Source of the DNA: Candidatus Woesearchaeota archaeon
Lineage (GTDB): Archaea; Nanobdellota; Nanobdellia; Woesearchaeales; GW2011-AR15
Reading direction: 5' to 3'
Length of the DNA: 49,536 nt
NCBI GenBank assembly: GCA_038874655.1
Contig: JAVZBY010000001.1
Span: forward strand, 1-49,536
The notes beneath the pieces are model-generated. The model was not told the DNA's origin. It saw nothing but the letters and a program-made list of their open reading frames with translations, and ran no database searches. Numbering within the stretch: position 1 is the first letter of the stretch; every line of letters starts with the position of its first letter. Positions 4,627 to 19,440 of the stretch are shown piece after piece. The translations under genes were made by a program, and so were the position numbers.

Positions 4627-7182
4627 TTAAATCTCATCCAATCTTAATTGTCTAGATTTAATTAAATTATTAACTTCTTCTACCTCTTTTCTTAATTTAT
4701 CTTTATTTCTTATTTTCTTTGTCTCTATTATTATTTTTGCACTAATCTCATCATCTTTTTCTAATTTAAATTGTATTTCTTTGCTTCTATCTACAACTTC
4801 TTTAGGCATGCCAGCTAATTTTGCTACATGGATTCCATAACTTTTATCAGTGCCGCCTTCTAGGATTTTTCTTAAAAATATTATTTTGTCTTCTTTTTCC
4901 AAAACAGCAATGTTATAATTCTTTATTCCTTTTATTTCTTTTTCTAAATTATTTAAAACATGATAATGTGTTGCAAACAATGTTTTTGCCTTTATCTTTT
5001 TAGCAATATACTCAGCAACAGCCCAAGCAATTGCAACACCATCATAAGTGCTTGTTCCTCTTCCAATTTCATCCATTATAATTAAAGATCTTTCATCAGC
5101 ACTATTTAATATCTGAGCTGTTTCTAGCATTTCAACCATAAAAGTACTTTGACCTCTAGATATATCGTCACTAGCTCCTGTTCTACAAAATAATTTATCC
5201 ACAATACCTATATGGGCTTCTTCACATGGAACAAAACAACCTATTTGAGCCATTATGACATTTAAAGCAACTTGTCTCATAAAAACACTTTTTCCAGCCA
5301 TGTTTGGCCCAGTTATAATCATCATTCTATTTTCTTCAGTAATATTTACATCATTACTAACAAAATTTTCAAATTGTTCTATAACAGGATGTCTTGATTT
5401 TTTTAATTTTATATCAAATTCATTATTCACATAAGGCTTTGTATAATTGTTTTTTAATGAAACATATGCAAAAGAACATAAAACATCAAGTAAAGCAATA
5501 TCTTCTGAAATTTCCTGTAATTTTGTAATATTTCTTTTTATCTCATTAATTAAGTCATTAAATAACTTTTTTTCAATTTCAATAATTTTTTCATCAGCAC
5601 TTAAAATTTCTTCTTCTAATTTTTTCAATTCATCTGTAATATATCTTTCACTATTAACTAATGTTTGTTTCTTTATATAATCTTTTGGAACCAAGTCCAA
5701 ATTTGATTTTGTAATATCAATATAATATCCAAAAACTTGGTTATATCTTATTTTCAAAGATTTTATTCCAGTTCTTTCTCTTTCTTTTTGTTCAATTGCT
5801 AAAATATGTTTCTTTGCATTATTTGATATATCTCTAAGTTTATCTAATTCCTCATTAAAGCCCTCTCTAATCACATTCCCTTCATCCAAACTGGAAGAGG
5901 GTTCATCAGCAATAGCTTTATCAATTAAATTTGCTAATTCATGCAAATCATCCATCTTTGATATTTTAATTAGTAAATCTGAGTTAAATTCAATTAAAAT
6001 TTTTTTAATTTCAGGAATCAATGATAAAGAACCTTCTAATGAAATAACATCTCTAGGGGATATATTTCCAAAATTTGCTTTTGAAATTAATCTGTCTATA
6101 TCTGAAAAATTTTTAAGTAAATTTCTCAATTCATCTAATAAAAAAGGTCTTAAAATTAAATCCTCAACTGCTAAAATTCTTTCATTAATCTTTGAAACAT
6201 CTTTTAATGGAGACATTAAAATCTTTTTTAATAATCTTGAACCCATGTTAGTTAAAGTTTTATCCAAAACATAAATTAAAGAACCCTTAGAATTATTGCT
6301 CTTACTTTTAAACAATTCTAAATTATCAATAGTTATGCTATCCATTTGCATAAATTCACTATCAGATAAAATCTTTATGAATTTAATATGACTTAAAACA
6401 TTTTTTTGAGTTTCATTAACATAATTCAATAAAGAACCAGCACAGCTTACAAGTAATTCTTTATCTTTTAATCCTAATCCTTCAAGAGAAGCCAAATTAA
6501 AATTTTTCATTAAAGTTTCTTTTGCATTCTCTTGGTAAAAATTAAAATCAGAATAAAATGTAATAAAGAATTTTTCTTTTAATCTTTTTATTTTTTCATC
6601 TTTTTCATAACTACTAGGAACTAAAATTTCAGCAGGTTGTATCTTCAATAAAAAATCAAAAACTTCTTCAAACAAATTATTCTCAGAATTATTAGAATAA
6701 TTTTTCAAAAATTCCTTTCCAAAAAAATCACCAGTAGTAATATCTAAAAAAGCAAATGCATGTTTTTCATCTTTAGCGTCTTTTACATAACTATAAGAAC
6801 AAATAAAATTATTTTGTATTCCTAAAATCTTTTCTTCAATAATAGTTCCAGGTGTTACAACTCTGACAACATCCCTTTTTACCACACCTTTAGCAAATTT
6901 GGGATCTTCTAATTGCTCAACTATAACTACTTTATAACCCTGTTTAATCATTTTTGATAAATAAGATTCTAAAGCATGATAAGGAATTCCAGCTAAAGGA
7001 ATTTCTCTATCACTATTTTTAATTCCTCTTCTAGTTAATGCAATATCTAAAACTTGTGAAGTAATTTTAGCATCATCATAAAATGTTTCATAGAAATCAC
7101 CCATTCTAAAAAAAACTATACAATCTCTATACTTATTTTTTATTTCCATATATTGTTTCATTGCAGGAGTCAAATCTTCCAT
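4627..7182 (-). CDS. mutS: DNA mismatch repair protein MutS (MutS1)
   Basis: TPAMKQY, FFRMGDFYE, GPNMAGKS, STFMVEM, DEIGRGT, SYGIHVAKLAG. Confidence 0.97.
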   Translation of the reverse strand: MEDLTPAMKQYMEIKNKYRDCIVFFRMGDFYETFYDDAKITSQVLDIALTRRGIKNSDREIPLAGIPYHALESYLSKMIKQGYKVVIVEQLEDPKFAKGVVKRDVVRVVTPGTIIEEKILGIQNNFICSYSYVKDAKDEKHAFAFLDITTGDFFGKEFLKNYSNNSENNLFEEVFDFLLKIQPAEILVPSSYEKDEKIKRLKEKFFITFYSDFNFYQENAKETLMKNFNLASLEGLGLKDKELLVSCAGSLLNYVNETQKNVLSHIKFIKILSDSEFMQMDSITIDNLELFKSKSNNSKGSLIYVLDKTLTNMGSRLLKKILMSPLKDVSKINERILAVEDLILRPFLLDELRNLLKNFSDIDRLISKANFGNISPRDVISLEGSLSLIPEIKKILIEFNSDLLIKISKMDDLHELANLIDKAIADEPSSSLDEGNVIREGFNEELDKLRDISNNAKKHILAIEQKERERTGIKSLKIRYNQVFGYYIDITKSNLDLVPKDYIKKQTLVNSERYITDELKKLEEEILSADEKIIEIEKKLFNDLINEIKRNITKLQEISEDIALLDVLCSFAYVSLKNNYTKPYVNNEFDIKLKKSRHPVIEQFENFVSNDVNITEENRMMIITGPNMAGKSVFMRQVALNVIMAQIGCFVPCEEAHIGIVDKLFCRTGASDDISRGQSTFMVEMLETAQILNSADERSLIIMDEIGRGTSTYDGVAIAWAVAEYIAKKIKAKTLFATHYHVLNNLEKEIKGIKNYNIAVLEKEDKIIFLRKILEGGTDKSYGIHVAKLAGMPKEVVDRSKEIQFKLEKDDEISAKIIIETKKIRNKDKLRKEVEEVNNLIKSRQLRLDEI

Positions 7183-7517
7183 TTTTACGATACTTTTGTG
7201 CTTTTGAATTTTTTATGCATCTAATTTAAAATTTGAAAATTTAAAAAATGAAATAAAATTTAAAGTTATATCTTTTTTTCTAATTAATGAAATTAGATAT
7301 AAGAAAGAATCGATTGACCTTTGCTTAATAAATACTTAATTAAGCACTTCTTTAATAAAAATATATTCTAATATATACACTATATATTTTATTGCGTCAA
7401 TATTATACAATATAATAAACTTTATAAATATCCAAAATTTTTTCTGAAACATTTTCATTTATTAAAAAAATTTTTTATAAATTTCAATTTTTATTATATT
7501 ACGATTAGGTGTGGGAA

Positions 7518-7883
7518 ATGCATTCAGAACATAAAGAAAATACTAATTCAAAAACAGATTTTGATATATTCTCTGAAGAAATAAAAAAATTGGAATTAGA
7601 TGCAGAAAATATAATAAATGAAGCATACAGAAAAAAAGAAGAATTTATAGCAAAAGCAAAAACAGAATCTATTGAATTAATAAAGAAAAAAGAAGCAGAA
7701 TACTTAGAAAAGAAACATGAATATTTAGAAAAAGAAAAAAAGTTATTAGATGATGAAAAAGAAAAAAAGTTAAAAAATAGCGAAAAAGAACTTAAAGATT
7801 TAGAAACTAAAGCAATTAAAAAAATAGATTCTGCTGCTAAATATGTTATTGAATTAATGAATAATGAAATAGACAATATATAA
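7518..7883 (+). CDS. atpH: A-type ATP synthase subunit H (peripheral stalk)
   Basis: Charged coiled coil, first in the operon; ATG at 7518 after GGTG preferred to the track's 7509. Confidence 0.7.
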   Translation: MHSEHKENTNSKTDFDIFSEEIKKLELDAENIINEAYRKKEEFIAKAKTESIELIKKKEAEYLEKKHEYLEKEKKLLDDEKEKKLKNSEKELKDLETKAIKKIDSAAKYVIELMNNEIDNI

Positions 7884-7955
7884 AATTTGTATTTGATTTT
7901 GCTTAAATAATAAAATTTTGATTAAAAAATTCAAAAAAATAATCAGTGATAAAAG

Positions 7956-9956
7956 ATGATAAAACCAAAACCAATGTATAGAGTTACTATTTTAGCACCT
8001 AAATTATATATGAAAGAAATAATTGAATCAATGTACAATTTAAATGTTGTCCATATTGAAGAACATACTAAAAATGAAGTATTTGACATTGGAAAACCAT
8101 TAGAAAATAATGAGAAAAATGCAGAAATCTTAGTAAAATTAAGGTCATTAATATCAAATCTTAAAATAACAGGTTCAATAAATCCATCAAAGAAATCTTT
8201 TGATACTATTTCAGATGAAACAAATAAACTATATGATGAATATGTTAGATTAATAAACAAAAAAGAATATTATCAAGGTTTAAAAAAAATTTATACAAAA
8301 AATAAAAAAAAAGGTTTTTCTAAGATTTTAAATAATTTTAAATTTGAACAAGAAAATGGTTTCTCTAATGAAAATTATATCCATTATATAGGTTTTATTA
8401 ATTCGCAAGCTGAAAAATTTAAAGAAAAACTTGATATAGAAATTAAAAAATATTTCTTATTTAATACAAATTATGAAAATTTAAACTTAATTGCATTATT
8501 TATTGAAAAAAATAAAAAAGAAAAGACAGAGATATTGTTAGAAAATTTTGATTTTTCACCAATAGAACAGCCGCATATAAAAGTTGCATTTCCAAAATTA
8601 AAATCCAAATCAGGGATAAAATTTGTAAAATTAAATTATCAATTAGAAAAAATAAATGCAAAATTAAAAGAGGTTGATTCTGAAATACAGCAATTTAAAA
8701 TCAAAAACACAGAATTTTTGCTTTCTGCTGAAAAAGCATTGAGAATTGAATCAGAGAAAGCTGAAGTCCCTTTAAAATTTGGAGAAACAAAAAACACTTT
8801 CTTAGTAAAAGGATATGTGCCTGTTGAAAATAAAGAAAAGTTAGAGAAAAAATTATTAGAGATTACAAAAGGAAGTATAATGATTAAATTTGAGAAGCCA
8901 AATAAATCAGAAAATGTGCCAACAGCATATAATCATCCAAAGATTGTAGAGCCATTTGAAGCATTTATGGATTTATATACCATTCCAAAATACAAAGAAA
9001 TAGATCCAACATTTTTCATGTTTTTAACATTCCCTATATTTTTTGGATTTATGTTAGGAGATGTAGGTTATGGTTTAGTCACATTAACTTTATTTTTATT
9101 TTTAAGAGCAAAAATGCCTGGTGCAAAAAACCTTCTAAATGCATTTATAATAGCTTCCATTTCATCTATATTTTTTGGTATTATTTTTGGTGAGTATTTT
9201 GGTTTTGAAGAACTTCCACATTCTTTAGGAGAATCATTACAACATAGTTTACCAAAGAGTTTTATTGACACATGGCACATGAAACCAATTGAAAAAGGTC
9301 ATGGTAGTAAAGAACTAATATATCCAACACCACATTTATTTTCAAGAAGCCATGGAATTACAGAATTATTGTCAATGGCAGTACTTTTTGGTATTGTCCA
9401 TATACTAATTGGTTTCATAATAGGTTTCATAAATATTTATAATGCACATGGTTTAAAACATGCTATTTTTGAAAAAGGTGGCTGGATATTAATATTGCCA
9501 ATGATAGTTTGGATTTTGATGGAACCATTAGGCATAATAAAAGGATTTGTTTATGATATGCTGAAAATAATAATTCCACCTTTCACTATTCTGATTGGTT
9601 TATTTATTTTAGGAGCAATATTAACTATTATAGGTGAAGGCGTCCAAGGTGCAATTGAAGTTTTATTTTTGTCATTAATGTCAAACATCTTATCTTATGC
9701 TAGATTAATGGCTGTAGGTTTAGCTTCATTAAGCTTGGCTGTTGTAGTAAATGATTTAGCAACTGAAATGTTTAGAAGTGGAATTGTAGGAATATTAATG
9801 GGTATTATTATATTACTATTAGGTCATGGAATAAATATAGCTTTGGGAATTTTAAGTCCATTTTTACATTCACTAAGATTACATTATGTTGAATTTTTTG
9901 GTAAATTTTTCAAAGGTGGCGGAAAAAAATTCAAGCCATTTGGTTTGAAGGATTAA
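7956..9956 (+). CDS. atpI: A-type ATP synthase subunit I (a)
   Basis: PKYKEIDPT, FFGFMLGDVGYG, essential Arg in LSYARL, LRLHYVEFF. Confidence 0.97.
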   Translation: MIKPKPMYRVTILAPKLYMKEIIESMYNLNVVHIEEHTKNEVFDIGKPLENNEKNAEILVKLRSLISNLKITGSINPSKKSFDTISDETNKLYDEYVRLINKKEYYQGLKKIYTKNKKKGFSKILNNFKFEQENGFSNENYIHYIGFINSQAEKFKEKLDIEIKKYFLFNTNYENLNLIALFIEKNKKEKTEILLENFDFSPIEQPHIKVAFPKLKSKSGIKFVKLNYQLEKINAKLKEVDSEIQQFKIKNTEFLLSAEKALRIESEKAEVPLKFGETKNTFLVKGYVPVENKEKLEKKLLEITKGSIMIKFEKPNKSENVPTAYNHPKIVEPFEAFMDLYTIPKYKEIDPTFFMFLTFPIFFGFMLGDVGYGLVTLTLFLFLRAKMPGAKNLLNAFIIASISSIFFGIIFGEYFGFEELPHSLGESLQHSLPKSFIDTWHMKPIEKGHGSKELIYPTPHLFSRSHGITELLSMAVLFGIVHILIGFIIGFINIYNAHGLKHAIFEKGGWILILPMIVWILMEPLGIIKGFVYDMLKIIIPPFTILIGLFILGAILTIIGEGVQGAIEVLFLSLMSNILSYARLMAVGLASLSLAVVVNDLATEMFRSGIVGILMGIIILLLGHGINIALGILSPFLHSLRLHYVEFFGKFFKGGGKKFKPFGLKD

Positions 9957-10048
9957 TTACTCAGATATAATTTAATGCTCAATTAGTATTTAATTTATAT
10001 AAAAAATAAAAAAAAAGACAATCAAAAATTCAATTGGAGGTAAAAAAA

Positions 10049-10288
10049 ATGGTAGAAGTTAGTGTAGGTTTAGGTTTAATTGGAATAGCAGCATCATTAG
10101 CTGTTGGAATAACTGCTATTGCAACAGGAATTGCAGAAAAAGCGATTGGAACTGCTGCTGTTGGTGCAATGGCTGAAAAAGAAGAATTATTCGGTAAAGG
10201 ATTAATTTTAACAGTTATTCCCGAGTCATTAGTTATCTTTGGATTAGTAGTTGCTATTCTTATATTAGGATTAGCATCAGGCGCTTAA
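10049..10288 (+). CDS. atpK: A-type ATP synthase subunit K (c), single hairpin
   Basis: Two TM helices with IPES carboxylate; ATG at 10049 follows SD GGAGG. Confidence 0.95.
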   Translation: MVEVSVGLGLIGIAASLAVGITAIATGIAEKAIGTAAVGAMAEKEELFGKGLILTVIPESLVIFGLVVAILILGLASGA

Positions 10289-10303
10289 AAAAATAAAGCG
10301 CTT
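10279..10303 (+). terminator. Hairpin over the atpK stop codon (terminator or mRNA stabiliser)
   Basis: AGGCGCTT-N9-AAGCGCTT stem followed by T-rich tract. Confidence 0.45.
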
Positions 10304-10409
10304 AATTTATTTTAATCCAATAAGAAGTAATTTATAAACTATCCTTTATTTAATAGGTTATAGAAATCATTAAACAATTGCCAATTATTAAATTTATCAG
10401 GTGAGTTAA

Positions 10410-10955
10410 ATGGGATTAGATGAACTAAAAGCAGAAATTATAAATAATGCTAAAAAACAGGCAGAAAAAATAAACAAAGAAGCAGAAAAAGAAAAAGAAA
10501 TAATTATGAATTCAGCAGAACAAAGAATAAAAGAAATAAAATCAAAAATAGATGAAGAAACAAAAAACTCACTAGAACAATATAAAACTTATATCCTTAC
10601 AGAAATTAATTCAACAATAAAAAGAAAAAAACTCATGATGGAAAAACAAATAATAGATACTGTTTTTGAAAAAGTGTATGAAGAATTAAAAAATTTAGAT
10701 AAGAAAAATAGAGAAGAACACATAAAAAAAATTCTTTCAAAATATAATAATTATAAAAAAGTGTATTGCTCAGAGTCAGATTATAACATTGTAAAAAAAT
10801 ATCTTAAGAGTTATGAACCAAAAGTAATTGATATCATTGGAGGATTAATCTTAGAAGATGATAATGGTGAAACAAGAATAAATCTCTCTTATGAAGAAAT
10901 ATTAAATGACATAAAGAAGAAATATCTACTAGAAATATCTAAAAAATTATTTTAA
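10410..10955 (+). CDS. atpE: A-type ATP synthase subunit E
   Basis: MGLDELKAEI start, coiled coil, IIGGLILE...RINLSYE; SD GGTGA. Confidence 0.92.
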   Translation: MGLDELKAEIINNAKKQAEKINKEAEKEKEIIMNSAEQRIKEIKSKIDEETKNSLEQYKTYILTEINSTIKRKKLMMEKQIIDTVFEKVYEELKNLDKKNREEHIKKILSKYNNYKKVYCSESDYNIVKKYLKSYEPKVIDIIGGLILEDDNGETRINLSYEEILNDIKKKYLLEISKKLF

Positions 10956-10994
10956 GTTTTAATAAAAAAATTTTAAAAAACAAAAATCTCAAAA

Positions 10995-12029
10995 ATGGAA
11001 CAAAAAATATCTTATGAATTTAGCCCATATACTTATGCTAGAGTTTCAGCAATGAAGGGCTTACTACTAAAGAAAAATGATTATGAGAAATTATTAAAGT
11101 TAGAATTAAATGAAATTATAAAATTCTTACAAGAAGGCACATATTCAAATGAAATAAATGAATTAGCGTTGAAATATCAAGGTTTAAAATTAATTGAAAG
11201 AGCACTAAACAAAAATTTAAGTAAAATACTAACAAAAATTAGACAAATTTCAGATATAGAAATACAGCCATTAATAGATATGTATTTGAAAAGATATGAT
11301 TACTATAATATAAAAACTTTGCTGAGAGCTAAATATTCTAATTTAAATTTTGAAGAAATTGAAGATTTGTTAATTCCAGTATCAAGCTTGAATAAAAACA
11401 ATTTAAAAAAACTCTATCAAAAACAAATTATTAACATTTTAGTTGATTCTAAATTATTGCCAAATTCAATAGCAAAAGAAGAAATATCTAAATATGAAAA
11501 CACAAAAGATCTTTCATCAATAGAAAACACATTAGACTTTTTTTACTATAAAAGCACTTTACAACTATCGCAGAAAATTCCAGAAGAAGGTAAATTATTT
11601 AAAGAATTTTTTGAGCATGAAATCTCAATATATAACTTAAAATTAATATTAAAAAAAATTGCGTTTGAGTTAGATAAAAGGGAAATTGAAAAATACATTA
11701 TAAATGGTTCTAAAATATTCTCAATCCAGCAAATAAAAAATTTAATAAATTCTCAATCATACGAATCATTTTACAATGAATTCAAAAAAACTTATTATGG
11801 AAAATTTATAGATTTTAAAGAAAAAGATCTTTTAAAATATGAAGTATTATTTGAAAACTTTTTGTTAAAAAAAAGAAATTTATTATCACATCAACATCCT
11901 TTAACAGTAGACACAATTCTTGGTTTTATGTTTCAAAAAGAAACAGAGGTAAAAAATTTAAAAGTAATTGTAAAATCAAAATCCTTGCAATTAGAATCAG
12001 ATTATGTTGAAAAATTATTAGTTTATTAA
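10995..12029 (+). CDS. atpC: A-type ATP synthase subunit C
   Basis: YTYARVSAMKGLLL, YDYYNIKTLLRAK, KETEVKNLKVI. Confidence 0.92.
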   Translation: MEQKISYEFSPYTYARVSAMKGLLLKKNDYEKLLKLELNEIIKFLQEGTYSNEINELALKYQGLKLIERALNKNLSKILTKIRQISDIEIQPLIDMYLKRYDYYNIKTLLRAKYSNLNFEEIEDLLIPVSSLNKNNLKKLYQKQIINILVDSKLLPNSIAKEEISKYENTKDLSSIENTLDFFYYKSTLQLSQKIPEEGKLFKEFFEHEISIYNLKLILKKIAFELDKREIEKYIINGSKIFSIQQIKNLINSQSYESFYNEFKKTYYGKFIDFKEKDLLKYEVLFENFLLKKRNLLSHQHPLTVDTILGFMFQKETEVKNLKVIVKSKSLQLESDYVEKLLVY

Positions 12030-12041
12030 AGGTGATGAAAA

Positions 12042-12350
12042 ATAGCAGAACTTGCAGTCATAGGAAATAGTGAATTTGTATTAGGATTTGAATTAATTGG
12101 ACTTAATGTTTATGAAGCAGAAACAAGTGATAAACTTAAAGAATATTTTTTAAAATGTTTAAATGATAAAAACATAGGTATTATAGTAACTAATGACAAA
12201 ACATTACAAAAATTAGAACCAAATATAAAAAAACAAGTAGAAAATTCCTTGAGTCCTGTTTTAGTGGTTTTATCAGATAAACCCGGTGCACAAGAAAATT
12301 TAAGAGAAATGATAAAAAAAGCAATTGGAATAGATTTATGGTCAAAATAA
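12042..12350 (+). CDS. atpF: A-type ATP synthase subunit F (apparent ATA start), 102 aa
   Basis: Absent from the ORF track. (M)AELAVIGNSEFVLGFELIGL...NIGIIV...PVLVVL...LREMIKKAIGIDLWSK; canonical position between C and A. Confidence 0.92.
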   Translation: MAELAVIGNSEFVLGFELIGLNVYEAETSDKLKEYFLKCLNDKNIGIIVTNDKTLQKLEPNIKKQVENSLSPVLVVLSDKPGAQENLREMIKKAIGIDLWSK

Positions 12351-12391
12351 TTAGATATTAAAAAATATAACTAATCATTAGGTGAAAAATT

Positions 12392-14188
12392 ATGGTTGAA
12401 AAGAATGAAACTAAACTAAAAAGTAAAAATAACAATGAACAAAAAAATGAGTTGTCAAAAGGTGTTTTAGTTAGAATTGCTGGCCCAGTTGTAGTTGCTC
12501 AAGGGATAGATGCAAAAATGTATGATTTAGTTAGAGTAGGAAATGAAGGATTAATGGGAGAAGTAATTCAAATTGATGGATTAAATACAACAATTCAAGT
12601 TTATGAAGATACCTCAGGAATAAAACCTGGTGAACCAGTTATAAATACAGGAAAACCATTATCAGTAAAATTAGGGCCAGGTTTATTAACAAGTATTTAT
12701 GATGGTATTCAAAGGCCATTGCCAGTTTTAGCTGAAAAAATGGGTTCATTTATTCAAAGAGGAGTAGATGCTTCAGGATTAGATGAAAAGAAAAAATGGG
12801 ATTTTAAACCATTAGTTAAAAAAGGAGATTATGTAAAACCAGGCTCAATTATTGGCGAAGTTCAAGAAACAGAAACAATAAAACATAAAATTTTAGTTCC
12901 TCCTTACCCTGACTATGAAGGAAAAATTACAGAAATAAAATCTGGGAAATTTACAGTTGATGAGGTTGTAGCTGTTTTAGATAATGGTTCAGAATTAAAA
13001 TTAAGTCATTATTGGCCAGTTAGAGTTCCAAGAAAAGTTAAAGAAAAATTAGCACCAAAAATGCCATTATTAACAGGACAAAGAATTTTTGATGCATTAT
13101 TTCCCTTAGCAAAAGGTGGTGTAGCAGCTATTCCTGGCCCTTTTGGTGCTGGAAAAACAGTTTCACAACAACAATTAGCAAAATGGTCTGATGCTGACAT
13201 TGTAGTTTATATTGGATGCGGTGAAAGAGGAAATGAAATGACAGAAGTTTTAACAGAATTTCCTCATTTAATTGATCCAAAAACAGGAAAACCCTTAATG
13301 AATAGAACTGTCTTAATTGCAAATACCTCAAATATGCCCGTAGCAGCAAGAGAAGCTTCAGTATATACTGGAATTACAATTGCAGAATATTTCAGAGATC
13401 AAGGTTATTCTGTTGCATTAATGGCTGACTCTACTTCAAGATGGGCAGAGGCAATGAGAGAAATTTCTTCAAGATTAGAAGAAATGCCAGGTGAAGAAGG
13501 TTATCCTGCTTATTTAGCAACAAAATTAGCTGAATTTTATGAAAGAGCAGGCATTGTAAAAACATTATCAGGTAATATTGGCTCTGTTTCTGTAATTGGT
13601 GCAGTAAGTCCTCCAGGAGGAGATTTTTCAGAACCAGTTACACAAAACACTCTAAGAGTTGCAAAATGCTTCTGGGCATTAGATGCAAAATTAGCCCAAA
13701 GAAGACATTTCCCAAGTATAAACTGGCTTACCTCGTATAGTTTGTATAATAAAACCTTAGAGCAATGGTATAAAGAAAATGTTTCTCCTAAATGGCCAGA
13801 ACTAATGGCTGAAATAATGTCGATTTTACAAGAAGAAGAAAAATTATTAGAAATTGTGCAATTAGTAGGTAGTGATGCATTGCCAGAAAAGCAACAATTA
13901 ACACTAGAAATAGCAAGAATGATTAGAGAATTTTTCTTACAACAAAATGCATATCACGAAATTGATACTTATTGTGAACCTAAAAAAACATTTATGTTAG
14001 CAGAAACAATACTTTATTTTGGTAAAAAAGCACATCAAGCATTAGACGAAGGTGTTTCTATTTCAAGTATAATTAATTTAGATTCAAAAGAAAGAATAGC
14101 TAATGTTAAATTCGTAAAAGACTATGAAACAGAATTAACTAAAATAAAGATTGATATTGATAAAGAATTTGCGAAATTAAATGCATAA
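12392..14188 (+). CDS. atpA: A-type ATP synthase subunit A
   Basis: [34 protein letters not shown]; no intein. Confidence 0.98.
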
Positions 14189-14214
14189 TTATTAGAAAAA
14201 ATTAAGGTGATAAT

Positions 14215-15663
14215 ATGTTAAAAGAATATAAAACAATAACAAGAATTGCTGGGCCTTTAGTTTTTGTTCAAAAAACACATCCTGTTGGTTATGGTGAATT
14301 AGTCAGTATTAAATTATCTGATGGCACCATAAAAAATGGTCAGGTATTAGATACAAGTAATGAGATAGTTGTTGTTCAAGTTTTTGAAGGCACTTCTAGA
14401 ATTGATAAAAACTCTTGGGTTAAATTTTTGGGTGAAACAATAAAATTAAATGTTTCTGAGCAAATGTTAGGTAGGATTTTAACTGGAGCAGGAAAACCTA
14501 GAGATAATGGCCCTGAAATAATTCCCGAAGCAAGATTAGATATTAATGGAGCAGCAATTAACCCTTATGTTAGACAAAGTCCATCTGATTTTATTCAAAC
14601 AGGTATTTCTACAATAGATGCAACAAACACATTGGTTAGAGGACAAAAATTACCTATCTTTTCTGGAAGTGGACTGCCTCATAATGAAATTGCATTGCAA
14701 ATTGCAAGACAAGCAAAAGTTCCAGGACAAGAAGGAAAGTTTGCAGTTATTTTTGCAGCAATGGGTATTACTAATGAAGAAGCACAATATTTTATGAAGG
14801 ACTTTGAAGAAACTGGAGCATTGCAAAGAGCAGTAGTTTTTTTAAACCTAGCAGATGATCCTGCTGTAGAAAGGTTGATTACACCGAGAATGGCTTTAAC
14901 AACAGCAGAATATTTAGCTTTTGAAAAAGATATGCACGTATTAGTTATATTAACAGACATGACAAATTATTGTGAGTCATTAAGAGAAATTGGTGCAGCA
15001 AGAGAAGAAATCCCCGGTAGAAGAGGTTATCCTGGCTACATGTATACAGATTTAGCATCAATTTATGAAAGAGCTGGTATGATTAAAGGTAAAAAAGGTT
15101 CAATAACACAAGTGCCTATTTTAACAATGATAGGAGATGATATTACACATCCTATTCCAGATTTAACAGGCTATATTACAGAAGGACAAATTGTATTATC
15201 AAGAGAATTACATAGAAAAGGAATTTATCCGCCAGTTGATATTTTGCCAAGTTTGTCAAGATTAATGAACTCTGGAATTGGTGTAGGTAAAACAAGAGAA
15301 GATCATAAACAAGTTTCAGATCAATTATATGCAAACTATGCAGAAGGAAGAGATTTAAGAGGCTTAGTTGCAATTGTTGGTGAAGAAGCATTATCAGACA
15401 GGGATAAAAGATTGTTAAAATTTGCTGATGAATTTGAAAAAAGGTTTGTAAGACAAAATTCAAGAGAAGATAGAAGTATTACAAGAACATTAGAAATAGG
15501 TTGGGAATTATTAAGAATGATGCCGAAGAAAGATTTAACAAGAATAAAACCAGAATTCAGAGATAAATATTATGGTGAAGAAAATGTTGAATTAAAAGGT
15601 CAAAAAATAGAAACTCCCTTAGAATCAAGTGAAGATAATGATAAATTAAAAAGAAAAAAATAA
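14215..15663 (+). CDS. atpB: A-type ATP synthase subunit B
   Basis: [39 protein letters not shown]. Confidence 0.98.
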
Positions 15664-15721
15664 AAATTTACATTTTTAAAATTCAAGAATTAAAACAAAA
15701 AAATAAAATGAGGTATAAAAA

Positions 15722-16348
15722 ATGCCAAAATCAATCATAAAAGAATTGTTAGAAAATAATGAGCATTATCACGAAAAAGTTCAATGGGACTTAATTAAAA
15801 ATGGGCAAAGCCCTAAAATTACATTAGTCACTTGTTCAGATTCAAGAGTAAGCGGACATATTTTTGGTAAAGACTTAGTGAATTTTGTTTTTCACATAAG
15901 AAATATCGGAAACCAAATTGTAAATAATTTTGGCAGTGTAGATTATGGTGTTCATCATCTAAAAACACCAATACTGATGATTTTAGGTCATACAGATTGT
16001 GGTGCAGTAAAAGCAAGTCAAAAAGATTTTTCAAATGAAACAACAGAAATAAAAAAAGAACTTTATCCATTATACTTTAATTTAAGGTCAGGTGATAAAT
16101 CTAATATAACAAAACTAGTGCAATTAAATGTTGATATTCAAGTAGAAGAAGCAATGAAAAGATATGGGACAGAACACACTTTTATTGTAGGTGCAATATT
16201 TGATATTCACAAACATTATACAGAAAAAGAAGGAAGAGTCATAATAACTAATATAAATGGAATCACAGATGAAAAAAAATTAAAAGAACACCCTTTATTA
16301 AGTGCATTAACAAAAGAAATGCTCAATGCAAGAGTAAAGAGATTGTAA
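15722..16348 (+). CDS. Beta-class carbonic anhydrase
   Basis: GQSP, CSDSR, RNIGN, GSVDYGV, GHTDCGA; SD GAGG. Confidence 0.92.
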   Translation: MPKSIIKELLENNEHYHEKVQWDLIKNGQSPKITLVTCSDSRVSGHIFGKDLVNFVFHIRNIGNQIVNNFGSVDYGVHHLKTPILMILGHTDCGAVKASQKDFSNETTEIKKELYPLYFNLRSGDKSNITKLVQLNVDIQVEEAMKRYGTEHTFIVGAIFDIHKHYTEKEGRVIITNINGITDEKKLKEHPLLSALTKEMLNARVKRL

Positions 16349-16395
16349 ATAAAAAATTTAAAAAAATTTGCAAAAAATAAAACTCATTGATAAAA

Positions 16396-17019
16396 ATGGA
16401 CATAAAACCAACAAGATCAGAATTGATAAAACTTAAAAATAAAATCAAATTAGCTAAATCAGGCCATAAATTATTAAAGAAAAAAAGAGATGGCTTAATT
16501 TTAGAGTTTTTTGAAATACTTAAAGAAACAAAGTCAGTAAGAAAAGAGATGACTGAAAAATATAAAGAGGCAATTAAAAAAATAAATATAGCAAGAGTTT
16601 TAGAAGGCGATGTTGCAATAAAATCAATTGCATTAGCAATTAAAAATAAACCAAGCATTAATGTTAATACAAAAAATATAATGGGTGTTGTTGTTCCTAA
16701 TATTGAAAGTGAAAACATAAAAAAAGAAGTCCATGAAAGAGGTTATGGTTTAATAAACACAAGTGCAGCTGTTGTTGAAGCAGCAAATGCTTATGAGCAA
16801 TTATTAGAATATATTCTATTAATTGCCGAAGTTGAGACATCTATGATAAGATTATTACAAGAGATTGATAAAACAAAAAGAAGAGTTAATGCCTTAGAAT
16901 TTAATGTCTTGCCTAAATTAAACAACCAAAAAAACTTCATTCAACTAAGATTAGAAGAAATGGAAAGAGAATCTGTTTATAGAAGTAAAAGAATAAAAGC
17001 AAAAAGCAAGAAAAAATAA
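16396..17019 (+). CDS. atpD: A-type ATP synthase subunit D
   Basis: KPTRSEL, GHKLLKKKRDGL, TKRRVNALE, LEEMERE. Confidence 0.97.
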   Translation: MDIKPTRSELIKLKNKIKLAKSGHKLLKKKRDGLILEFFEILKETKSVRKEMTEKYKEAIKKINIARVLEGDVAIKSIALAIKNKPSINVNTKNIMGVVVPNIESENIKKEVHERGYGLINTSAAVVEAANAYEQLLEYILLIAEVETSMIRLLQEIDKTKRRVNALEFNVLPKLNNQKNFIQLRLEEMERESVYRSKRIKAKSKKK

Positions 17020-17110
17020 AAAAATTTTATTAATTTATATTTTTTTCAAGAAAAATAAAAAAGGGGTTCTGTATTAATTATGTTTTTAATTAAATAAGGA
17101 GGAGTTTATA

Positions 17111-18139
17111 ATGGAAGTTAGAACTGAAATTTACTATGTTGAAGCAACTATTCAAAGTAAATTACCAAAAAAATTAGATAATATTATAGAGGCAAATGCA
17201 CAATATGAAAAAGAGATTAAAGAATTAATTAAGCAATTAGACAATTCAAGCAATTATGCAGTTGGGTGCTCTGATGCAAGATATCCAGGAATTCCAGGAA
17301 TGCCTAATTCTTTTATGGCAGGAAGCAGAAATGATGGTAATCCAGATGATTATAGATTAAATGAAAAAACAAGAATTCAAGTTGATCATCATAATGGTAA
17401 TGGTAATGCTTGTGGCGGCAGAGCAAATGCACAAGCACATTTAGAAGGAAAAGTTTCAGATACATTATATCAAGAATTAGCTAACGGAGTAAATCCAAAT
17501 TTTATTCAAAATGCAATAGAAGGTGCTGGAGAAAATGGAATTCCAATGGTTTACAATCATTTAACTGGAACATTTCAAATGATTCAAGGAAATTATAATT
17601 TGCCAATAGCATTAGAAAATTTACCAGACCATATCTTAACAAATTTAAAAGAAACTGGCTTTCATAATGGCAGAACAAATTTTGTTGAGAAACAAGATCC
17701 TAATTATTTGGTTTTAAATTTAGCATTAGGAACATTAGGCCAATACATAGGAAGCGAATTTCCAAAACCATTAGGAGAGGTTTTTGAAGTAAAACCTAAT
17801 GCTTTGGGTATTTCATTGCTTGCTTATGAGCCAAGAGTAGTTGATGTGGCTTCTCTAATGTATTCCTTAGACAGCAGATTACAAACATTACAAGGAAAAC
17901 CTCATGGTTTTAGCAGCATGGATACTTTTGTAATTTTATATCATGTATTAACGACAAACCAAGAGCAAACACACTATTTAATACAAGGAATAGTTAAACA
18001 AATGATCCAATTAGGCCCAAGATTAGGGGAACATTTAACAAATCCTTTACAAGGAATAAGTATTTATGCGTTAGGTGTTAATAGAAATGGTTTAATTTTG
18101 CCTGAGTCTGTTTATGCAATAGAAGTTTCTAAACTTTAA
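17111..18139 (+). CDS. Divergent two-domain beta-carbonic-anhydrase-like protein
   Basis: GCSDAR and HHNGNGNACGG in the N-half; C-half keeps a beta-CA skeleton without ligands; strong SD GGAGGAG. Confidence 0.55.
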   Translation: MEVRTEIYYVEATIQSKLPKKLDNIIEANAQYEKEIKELIKQLDNSSNYAVGCSDARYPGIPGMPNSFMAGSRNDGNPDDYRLNEKTRIQVDHHNGNGNACGGRANAQAHLEGKVSDTLYQELANGVNPNFIQNAIEGAGENGIPMVYNHLTGTFQMIQGNYNLPIALENLPDHILTNLKETGFHNGRTNFVEKQDPNYLVLNLALGTLGQYIGSEFPKPLGEVFEVKPNALGISLLAYEPRVVDVASLMYSLDSRLQTLQGKPHGFSSMDTFVILYHVLTTNQEQTHYLIQGIVKQMIQLGPRLGEHLTNPLQGISIYALGVNRNGLILPESVYAIEVSKL

Positions 18140-18152
18140 ATTTTTTTAATTT

Positions 18153-18539
18153 TTATTTTATTATCTTCACTTTTTCTAATCCCTCAAAATCAAAATCCTT
18201 ACTAATCAATATGGCATTATTTTCAATAGAAGTTAAATAAATTAATGAATCAGTTAAACTAAAACTAGAAGTTTTATTTTTTTTTCTTTGCTTTTCTTTT
18301 AATAAGCCAGATTCTAAACAAGATTTTAAATTTAAATTTACAATTACAGAATTTCCTAAAATAAAGTTAAAAAATTTTTCAAAATCAATGTTTTTTTTTG
18401 CAAAAATAGATGATAATTCTGCTATAACAATAATTGGCGTAATTAAATCTCTTTCATCAATAATTTTTTTCAATTCTTCATTACCATTAAAAAACTCAAG
18501 CCATGCTGATGTATCCAAACAATATTTTATATTATTCAT
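18153..18539 (-). CDS. vapC: PIN-domain toxin (VapC-like)
   Basis: CLDTSAWLEFF, IAEL, SLTDSLI, LISKDFDF. Confidence 0.9.
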   Translation of the reverse strand: MNNIKYCLDTSAWLEFFNGNEELKKIIDERDLITPIIVIAELSSIFAKKNIDFEKFFNFILGNSVIVNLNLKSCLESGLLKEKQRKKNKTSSFSLTDSLIYLTSIENNAILISKDFDFEGLEKVKIIK

Positions 18540-18595
18540 TTTTTTATTATCTTTTTATTACTTTTTTTCTTTATAGATTAATTCTTTTTTATTGA

Positions 18596-18817
18596 TTAAT
18601 TTTCACTTTTGAATTTCATTCTATGTTCTTTTTTATTATATTTTATAGGATTTTCTCTTAAAATTCCAAACATACTTTCTTTTTCAACAATTTTATCTTT
18701 CATTTTATCTTTTAAAATGTTTAAAATTACTTCGTCATATGTTTTGTAATTCTCTTTTTCTTTTATATCTTTTAAAATTTGTAGGGTTGTTTCATTAATT
18801 TGAATTGTAGTTGCCAT
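18596..18817 (-). CDS. RHH-type antitoxin (VapB-like), 73 aa
   Basis: MATTIQINETTLQILKDIK...TYDEVI...SMFG; start at 18817 lies just downstream of a TATA box, so the track's longer N-terminus is probably promoter DNA. Confidence 0.75.
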   Translation of the reverse strand: MATTIQINETTLQILKDIKEKENYKTYDEVILNILKDKMKDKIVEKESMFGILRENPIKYNKKEHRMKFKSEN

Positions 18818-18954
18818 AATTATAATTATAGTTATAGTTATATAAATATTTTTCTTTTTTTTATTTTGTTTTTTTATGTTTTTGATATTATTTTTCAGTA
18901 GAAACAAAATACATTTAGCTATAGGATTTTTAAATAAAACCACTATCCCTACTT

Positions 18955-19179: not shown

Positions 19180-19440
19180 TCAAAACTCATCCATGGGCTC
19201 TTTTAAAGAAACATAATATCTTTGTGGTTTTGGCTTTGAATTTTCTCTTTCTACTTCTTTTATTGCTTTTTCAACATCCTCTTTATTCCAATGACTTAAA
19301 TCCTCAAATATTTTTTCAGAATCATATTTTTTTACATTTATATAGTATCTAACTAATCTTTGTACTTCCATAATTGTTGGTGATTTTTTTTCTCTTAGTT
19401 TTTTCATTTCTAAGTCAACATTTTTATTTTCGTCTACCAT
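19180..19440 (-). CDS. Hypothetical protein
   Basis: 86 aa, protein-like composition, TATA-like TTTAAA upstream. Confidence 0.6.
   Translation of the reverse strand: MVDENKNVDLEMKKLREKKSPTIMEVQRLVRYYINVKKYDSEKIFEDLSHWNKEDVEKAIKEVERENSKPKPQRYYVSLKEPMDEF

Follow-up and report, generated by a model that had tools for sequence, protein, structure and literature searches.

A gene for a beta-class carbonic anhydrase (CA) lies inside the A-type ATPase operon of a Candidatus Woesearchaeota archaeon, between atpB and atpD (assembly GCA_038874655.1; the 49,536 nt of contig JAVZBY010000001.1 that were analysed are hereafter called the window), and it is a real, intact, conserved and repeatedly renewed member of that operon in part of the order Woesearchaeales. 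That the CA is a selected member of the operon, co-expressed with the ATPase genes, is given a probability of about 0.85. The role that we favour for it, the handling of protons and bicarbonate for the ATPase, stands slightly below even odds, the functional link between CA and pump being plausible and as yet unproven. What is new is that the pairing of CA and rotary proton pump is here fixed within one prokaryotic operon; the enzyme itself is an ordinary beta-CA. The features that carry this finding are:

14215..15663, + strand: atpB, 482 aa (Pfam ATP-synt_ab, E 4.8e-81)
15664..15721, + strand: atpB-CA spacer, 58 nt, with GAGGT at 15710-15714, 7 nt before the CA start codon
15722..16348, + strand: beta-class CA, 208 aa (Pfam Pro_CA, PF00484)
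16396..17019, + strand: atpD, central stalk (Pfam ATP-synt_D, E 5.2e-58; NCBIfam NF001542 equivalog, E 1.3e-90, above cut-off)

An earlier reading of the same DNA from its letters (the sequence-only reading) had described an intact beta-CA with the strings CSDSR and GHTDCG on the same strand as atpB and atpD, separated from them by gaps of 58 and 47 nt and preceded by its own Shine-Dalgarno sequence, and all of these elements were recovered here. The 208-aa product matches PF00484 far above the cut-off (71.7 bits against 25.7, E 1.1e-19; 71.6 bits in the genome search) and is the sole PF00484 match in the 1.26-Mb, 97% complete genome to which the window belongs (G000). Judged by the source names of near-identical proteins, the organism belongs to Candidatus Woesearchaeota, a DPANN lineage. 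CSDSR occupies residues 38-42 and GHTDCG residues 89-94. An alignment of 33 homologues shows no variation at C38, D40, H90 and C93 and at least 90% conservation of R42; these five residues correspond to the zinc ligands and the Asp-Arg pair known from beta-CAs, so that the window CA shares both the family (PF00484) and the Cys-Asp-Arg...His-x-x-Cys zinc-site signature of bacterial and archaeal beta-CAs. By sequence it matches 34 solved beta-CAs, the best being 1ddz, the CA of Porphyridium purpureum (E 3.2e-16). Protein P0019, also a CA, is 61% identical to it, and the closest relatives outside Woesearchaeota, at 41-48% identity, are annotated CAs from Desulfobulbaceae/Thermodesulfobacteriota and Desulfurobacterium. 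These bacterial relatives (~265 aa) carry an N-terminal extension of ~45-50 residues that looks signal-like (judged by eye, with no predictor), whereas the archaeal operon copies lack the extension in the alignment, again judged by eye. The window CA sits within an ATPase operon, a setting that was not found at the six loci from outside Woesearchaeota that were examined. Because the extension is missing, the archaeal operon CAs are probably cytoplasmic, and the 208-aa gene is predicted from its sequence to encode a working cytoplasmic beta-CA, enzyme activity included.

The distribution of the arrangement was surveyed in two samples. In the relatives sample (41 genomes; window proteins were mapped onto ~10 kb around atpD taken from 24 relatives), atpD was found in 25 of the 41 genomes and a CA match in 9, and eight genomes have the order atpB-CA-atpD (G000, G002, G003, G004, G007, G008, G012 and G026). 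The order sample comprised 401 evenly drawn genomes, with a threshold of E<=1e-10 for a CA match. Here atpD is present in 155 genomes, a tally that includes four unpublished ones (G150, G225, G227 and G331), which enter into no other result given here, and a CA match in 12. All except one of these 12 matches lie inside the atp operon: ten between atpB and atpD (G000, G004, G026, G049, G060, G108, G114, G171, G239 and G265) and one directly after atpD, which it overlaps by 4 bases (G389). The remaining match, in G185, is the weakest (E 1e-11) and the sole one in the order sample not beside atp genes. When both samples are pooled, a CA within the atp operon is found in 17 genomes from seven families (f1, f8, f31, f42, f90, f96 and f131), located between atpB and atpD in 15 and directly after atpD in two (G005 and G389). 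The insertion is thus not peculiar to the window's genome; had it been so, this would have spoken against the sequence-only reading.

The CA of G005 follows an adjoining atpB-atpD pair and is diverged: it is 273 aa long, 30% identical to the window CA over its full length, has CGDSF in place of CSDSR and, with 24 bits, falls slightly below the Pro_CA cut-off. In 16 genomes of the relatives sample atpB adjoins atpD with no detected CA, and tblastn (E<=1e-4) found no CA remnants in the atpB-atpD gaps of these 16 operons. A scan of named genomes yielded eight loci, of which two have the atpB-CA-atpD order. One of them comes from a Woesearchaeota metagenome-assembled genome. The other, locus L038 (CAYMPC010000015.1), bears the title 'uncultured Methanosarcinales archaeon', but shares 86-89% identity with the window in AtpA and AtpB, and to judge from these sequences the Methanosarcinales label is probably wrong. 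No atp genes lie within 3.5 kb of the six CA loci from outside Woesearchaeota.

Location on the same strand, short or overlapping junctions, and a gene order conserved in relatives (17 genomes) all mark the CA as a member of the operon. Junctions derived from ORF boundaries mostly fall between -8 and +31 nt across the CA-bearing operons, and 4-base overlaps occur in G012, G114, G265, G239, G171, G049 and G389. The presence of overlapping or short junctions in many genomes makes co-expression of CA and ATPase very likely in the relatives. The co-expression put forward in the sequence-only reading was therefore strengthened for the relatives, where overlaps and junctions of 0-20 nt are found, while for the window itself co-transcription can be presumed from the gene arrangement. 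The atpB-CA spacer contains a TTTTT run (15673-15677) and no hairpin terminator in a consensus scan, and atpD starts with ATG at 16396, with TTG at 16387 as an alternative. AT-rich, TATA-like strings are found everywhere in the window DNA, whose GC content is ~22-31%. Scans of positions 7000-18600 returned 67 promoter-like sites against 76.6 expected (sigma-70 consensus) and a single hairpin terminator-like site, inside atpA, both results being uninformative for an archaeon.

The CA is under purifying selection. Both CxDxR and HxxC are kept in 16 of the 17 operon copies, which are 38-76% identical to the window CA, and NG86 estimates of dN/dS between G000 and G002 are 0.146 for the CA and 0.100 for atpD, rough values given that dS is saturated (>1). 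A CA phylogeny, suggested as a check in the sequence-only reading, was built by a quick IQ-TREE search from 70 rows (all 23 locus-derived sequences and 47 of 114 database proteins). One clade of 43 rows (SH-aLRT 82) takes in every one of the 17 operon copies, and its neighbour is a bacterial clade of Desulfobulbaceae type. This tree was compared with an AtpB tree, likewise the product of a quick search, which covers 31 operons, draws its CA-less rows from the relatives sample only and leaves out G006 (a 48%-identical, different ATPase) and G389 (atpB partial). On the AtpB tree, CA presence requires at least eight changes, six of which are forced by well-supported branches. Moreover, the two trees conflict. 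The CAs of the genus-mates G003 and G000 share 43% identity, and that of G003 pairs with the CA of G012 (SH-aLRT 97), whereas by AtpB G003 groups with the CA-less G017 (96) and G012 with G009, G013 and G015 (90). Such disagreement indicates that the slot between atpB and atpD was filled more than once, having been lost, refilled or exchanged several times, and repeated loss and refilling, as read from two quick searches, speaks for selection on the location.

The operon that hosts the CA contains a complete A-type ATPase gene set on the + strand (7509-17019), in the order H-I-K-E-C-F-A-B-CA-D. Subunits I, K, E, C, A, B and D were all matched by their own Pfam families on one strand; the probable H and F were assigned by place and size, H also by composition. 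The genes upstream of atpB are:

7509..7883, + strand: probable atpH (peripheral-stalk subunit), a 124-aa Lys/Glu-rich ORF 5' of atpI, named by position and composition only
7956..9956, + strand: atpI, membrane a-type subunit (Pfam V_ATPase_I, E 1.1e-30)
10034..10288, + strand: atpK, c-ring proteolipid (Pfam ATP-synt_C, E 1.4e-15)
10410..10955, + strand: atpE (Pfam vATP-synt_E, E 8.5e-17)
10995..12029, + strand: atpC (Pfam vATP-synt_AC39, E 5e-63)
12039..12350, + strand: probable atpF, a 103-codon stop-to-stop frame between atpC and atpA, named by position only
12392..14188, + strand: atpA, catalytic subunit (Pfam ATP-synt_ab, E 1.1e-73, plus N-terminal, Xtn and C-terminal domains)

Near the 5' end of the atpF-sized frame at 12039-12350 there is no ATG, GTG or TTG, and common start codons call its last 33 codons only; a non-canonical start codon may be in use there. 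AtpB matches NCBIfam NF003235 well above the cut-off (800.5 bits against 349) and TIGR01041 with E 4.3e-250 and 829.8 bits, slightly below the cut-off of 844.65 bits. Beyond the conserved domain it ends in a charged C-terminal tail of ~25 residues (about 455-482; window 15580-15663). The tail also aligns in several relatives without a CA and is thus not specific to CA-bearing operons.

To place the pairing in its metabolic context, five CA-bearing genomes (G000, G002, G004, G026 and G114) were searched for families of ion pumps and of bicarbonate users. Proton_antipo_M (PF00361; complex I, Mrp, Mbh and DabB type) and Rnf were found in none of the five, and the same was true of RuBisCO, PEPcase and SulP. 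Membrane pyrophosphatase is encoded in three (G002, G026 and G114) and was not found in G000 or G004. Archaeal PEPC and PurE were each detected in G114 only, and strong matches of the CPSase/biotin-carboxylase type were limited to G004 and G114 (two-domain CPSase_L_D2, E 7.9e-78 and 5.7e-77); G000 yielded only two partial ATP-grasp matches, both weak (27 and 24 bits). Within the 97%-complete G000 genome and for the families listed, the ATPase is the only recognisable primary ion pump, and there is no clear bicarbonate consumer. Arguing from absence, this combination favours proton and bicarbonate handling over a supply of bicarbonate for biosynthesis. The Woesearchaeota genomes analysed in a comparative study are described in its text as all lacking complete electron-transport chains, with some encoding a V-type ATPase, and the words 'carbonic' and 'bicarbonate' are absent from the main text of that study (PMC8421398).

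Since no respiratory chain is recognisable in this small DPANN archaeon, the rotary enzyme most likely works mainly as an ATP-driven ion pump, its direction being deduced from this context. Such a pump would energise the membrane and remove protons, while the CA would let CO2 + H2O <-> HCO3- + H+ equilibrate rapidly in the cytoplasm. Protons for the pump to export could then come from metabolic CO2, with bicarbonate retained as an alkaline buffer, and in the reverse direction bicarbonate could mop up incoming protons. The sequence-only reading had named pH homeostasis, proton supply and carbon capture as possible purposes. All three are still conjectural, and carbon capture has become the weakest, because searches of G000 gave no RuBisCO, SulP, PEP carboxylase or DabB-type subunit.

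The favoured role has a counterpart in animals. In acid-secreting animal cells the V-ATPase is paired with cytosolic CA II, which makes H+ and HCO3- from CO2; that CA is of the unrelated alpha class, its gene is not linked to those of the pump, and bicarbonate leaves through an anion exchanger. The two cases share a rotary V/A-type pump, a cytoplasmic CA and the same logic, but the archaeal enzyme is of the beta class, it is encoded inside the ATPase operon, and no SulP-type carrier was found. There is a looser likeness to other CA-like proteins linked to ion gradients, namely the gamma-CA subunits of plant complex I and the inorganic-carbon pumps DAB (DabBA)/MpsAB. In the latter, a beta-CA-like zinc protein works in connection with a cation gradient, and DAB requires DabB, a subunit of the Proton_antipo_M family. 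Unlike DabA, which is long, the window CA is a canonical short beta-CA, and the lack of a DabB-type gene in the five genomes searched (no search was aimed at DabA) indicates that this is not a DAB system.

Several observations weigh against a selected, co-expressed CA that serves the pump. An operon CA was found in only 11 of the 155 atpD-bearing genomes of the order sample, so the pairing is dispensable for most relatives. In the window, AT-rich gaps of 58 and 47 nt and the CA's own Shine-Dalgarno sequence leave room for an internal promoter. The ATPase need not be the sole pump in G002, G026 and G114, given their pyrophosphatase, and no exporter was found for the bicarbonate left behind (no SulP in any of the five genomes). 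The CPSase-type genes of G004 and G114, together with PurE and PEPC in G114, make a biosynthetic role of the CA possible in those genomes. Finally, a Na+-specific c-ring would weaken the proton argument.

The alternative that survives best, although we consider it unlikely, is that the CA has no tie to the ATPase and supplies bicarbonate for biosynthesis as a house-keeping enzyme, as Can does in E. coli, the operon being merely a reliably expressed unit in a small genome with few promoters. This would fit G004 and G114, with their two-domain CPSase_L_D2 proteins, and above all G114, with PurE and archaeal PEPC as well. It would also fit the low frequency of the pairing among atpD-bearing genomes and the fact that, as the sole PF00484 gene of G000, the operon CA has to meet any need for CA in that cell. 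Nevertheless, G000, G002 and G026 keep the CA with no strong match to CPSase/biotin carboxylase, PurE, PEPcase or archaeal PEPC. A house-keeping gene also sits poorly with the concentration of 11 of 12 order-sample matches in one operon, and chance hitch-hiking can hardly explain why different CA subclades occupy the same slot.

A physical or vectorial coupling, in which the CA, perhaps together with a second, diverged beta-CA-fold protein, would bind to the A1 head or stalk and make a CO2/bicarbonate disequilibrium part of the chemiosmotic cycle, is improbable. The CA might for example act as a proton sink, allowing a non-respiring cell to draw ATP from an external gradient of pH or dissolved inorganic carbon. 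The slot is indeed flanked by genes for two A1 subunits, to both of which the CA is translationally coupled in several genomes, and different CA lineages have refilled it; a second beta-CA-fold gene adjoins it in several lineages (see below), and G000 has no other recognisable primary pump. Docking finds no counterpart in the protein itself, a soluble beta-CA of ordinary length with no extra domain, or in the C-terminal tail of AtpB, which is present in CA-less relatives too. A long shot of the same order is the more far-reaching proposal that, in ultra-small, non-respiring archaea, one functional and possibly physical unit is made up of the rotary ATPase together with one or two beta-CA-fold proteins, a unit in which the CO2/bicarbonate/proton equilibrium is coupled to ion translocation, so that disequilibrium with the surroundings or a host could sustain the ion-motive force, and even ATP synthesis, without an electron-transport chain.

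Least probable of all is that the CA is a neutral passenger kept by inertia, or that it hydrolyses COS or CS2 instead of hydrating CO2, which would suit the patchy distribution with its many changes on the AtpB tree and the beta-CA fold that COS and CS2 hydrolases share (both are among the structural matches of the ~245-aa family described below), but conflicts with catalytic residues retained in nearly all copies despite identities as low as 38%, a dN/dS of ~0.15, overlapping junctions that persist across seven families, and closest sequence relatives and solved matches that are annotated or known CAs.

The sequence-only reading had put the system forward as a candidate for an undescribed one, and no paper on a CA gene in an archaeal or V/A-type ATPase operon was found in a full-text literature search whose coverage stopped short of subscription journals and supplementary tables. 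The passages of PMC3543383 and PMC7325909 that mention CA and ATPase terms do so in unrelated places. How rotary ATPases are used without a respiratory chain in DPANN archaea and in bacteria of the candidate phyla radiation is an open question, on which a CA that is operon-embedded, repeatedly re-acquired and translationally coupled gives something concrete to test: the pump in these cells is limited by how protons and bicarbonate are handled, or else gradients of CO2 and bicarbonate belong to the cells' energy economy. Even if the link were only one of co-regulation, this would still be a clean case of a metabolic gene repeatedly recruited to one slot of a core operon.

The CA is not the only gene of interest in this region, and further candidates for the CA fold were found at the operon's 3' end or within the slot itself:

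L013:4164-4907, L018:4204-4926, L025:3204-3956, - strand: ~245-aa family (proteins P0126-P0137)
L047:683-1501, L049:710-1501, L050:707-1498, - strand: 263-272-aa gene between CA and atpD in G239, G171 and G049, with overlapping junctions

The first is an unannotated family encoded 3' of atpD, on the same strand, in G002 (a member of the window's genus), G011 and G004; in G007 the gene is split into two frames. An alignment with 11 further homologues shows C23, D25, H82, H158, D160 and C161 to be invariant. The AlphaFold model is confident (pLDDT 91.3, pTM 0.91). Foldseek against the PDB gave no match at E<=0.001, with the pea beta-CA 1ekj at rank 25 (probability 0.44), and an exhaustive structural aligner placed beta-CA-fold enzymes in 14 of its 15 best rows, twelve of them CAs and the other two hydrolases of COS and of CS2, with Z of 5.7-7.9 over 111-141 aligned residues and LCIB at ranks 18 and 21. 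A Z below 8 is middling when taken alone, and the weight of this result lies in the consistency of the rows. Profile comparison with the CA family (hhalign) aligned only the HPDCG strand, at 2% probability. Three members (P0132, P0135 and P0136) have an N-terminal extension, which zinc-ribbon families match in P0132. The family occurs in five of the 401 order-sample genomes; it lies beside atpD in G011 and G004 only, and outside f1 it was not found in that position. Judged by its model, it looks like an undescribed, diverged beta-CA-fold family.

The 272-aa gene is linked to the same fold by an ESM Atlas feature search, in which 24 of 30 hits are LCIB_C_CA (top score 0.94, 205 shared features); against the Pfam LCIB_C_CA profile it reaches only E 0.057. 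Two CA-fold genes are thus likely to occupy the slot in G239, G171 and G049, which belong to a genus of f31, and in G002 a CA-fold gene lies on each side of atpD. These accessory genes resemble the diverged beta-CA-fold forms LCIB/LCIC (theta-type, PF18599) and CsoSCA, from which they differ in that no Pfam threshold is reached and in having no carboxysome or algal CO2-concentrating context. In G008, a 585-aa ORF 3' of atpD (L026:1240-2997, - strand) contains CSDSR and H...G-C-G strings and has no family match; going by these motifs, it is possibly another diverged CA-like gene.

In the window itself, the position after atpD is taken by a different gene, here called orf342:

17020..17110, + strand: atpD-orf342 spacer, 91 nt, with a T7 run at 17040-17046 and GGAGG at 17098-17102
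17111..18139, + strand: orf342, 342 aa, a near-orphan with the beta-CA-like motifs C-S-D-A-R (53-57) and D-H-x7-C-G-G

Oligo-T runs act as transcription terminators in archaea, and the T7 run, taken as a putative terminator, together with the gene's own GGAGG suggests that orf342 is probably a separate transcription unit. The sequence-only reading had taken it for a second CA-like gene, so that CAs would flank atpD. An ORF with CA-like motifs is indeed present, and its identity as a CA is no more than a lead; CAs on both sides of atpD are accordingly unproven for the window, and the pattern does apply to G002 with its diverged beta-CA-fold gene. We regard the chances that orf342 has the CA fold as roughly even. 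An equal weight is given to the alternative that it is unrelated to CA, its motif strings being due to chance and the gene a recently acquired accessory parked after the operon.

Several results on orf342 would fit an unrelated gene. It has no match among Pfam or NCBIfam families, and comparison with PDB and Pfam profiles gave nothing meaningful. BLASTP against the window CA gives E 0.002 over 64 residues, and hhalign against the CA profile a probability of only 31%. No significant similarity was found to the ~245-aa family, the 272-aa family or the G005 and G008 proteins. An AlphaFold (AF2) model from a four-sequence alignment is too poor to speak for either side (pLDDT 45), as is the Atlas model (pLDDT 0.45), whose structural rows have TM <=0.33 by query throughout. 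A word-based search of 5.8 billion proteins returned orf342 itself only, and a HMMER search of 1.84 billion representatives returned three relatives (E 1.9e-23, 1.9e-17 and 1.6e-10). The family is present in one of the 401 order-sample genomes, G000 itself, with a 42-residue fragment in G001 of the same genus, and the single metagenomic homologue locus retrieved is not next to atpD. In addition, the spacing between the candidate ligands H and C is 7-8 residues instead of the canonical 2 (H-x-x-C), and the T7 run and GGAGG set the gene apart from the operon.

On the other side, the motifs are conserved wherever the region is covered. In the two full-length relatives, P0122 (the closest) and P0123, C-[SA]-D-A-R and D-H-x(6-7)-C-G are present as in orf342, so that candidate-ligand motifs occur in three of four family members, and the fourth, P0124, is N-terminally truncated and retains the C-G part only. 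The longest contig listed for P0122 has 43,661 bases, as has that listed for the CA P0019, and the two may be encoded on one contig of another organism. Both motifs of orf342 are in register with the CA profile in the hhalign comparison. Of six rows listed by an ESM Atlas feature search, four are clusters that carry diverged forms of the beta-CA fold (CDCA, in 17% of members, LCIB_C_CA twice, and CsoSCA; 0.83-0.87), a lead only, and a beta-CA-fold gene is found at the equivalent position in G002, G004, G007 and G011. Like the canonical CA and the ~245-aa and LCIB-like 272-aa proteins, the orf342 product is small and soluble, so that each of the four could be expressed and assayed.

Other genes lie at the 3' end of the operon. 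After orf342, the window encodes a PIN-domain protein (18153-18943, - strand; Pfam PIN, E 3.3e-13) with a weak VapB-like partner, and in G004 atpD and the beta-CA-fold gene are separated by another PIN-like ORF (L025:4124-4782, - strand) and a small ORF upstream of it; toxin-antitoxin pairs may use the 3' end of the operon as a landing site. Further along, an 86-aa ORF (window 19180-19440, - strand) is a conserved convergent neighbour that tblastn also located near atpD in 12 of the 24 relatives' loci, and the variable accessory genes are inserted on the operon side of the syntenic boundary that it marks.

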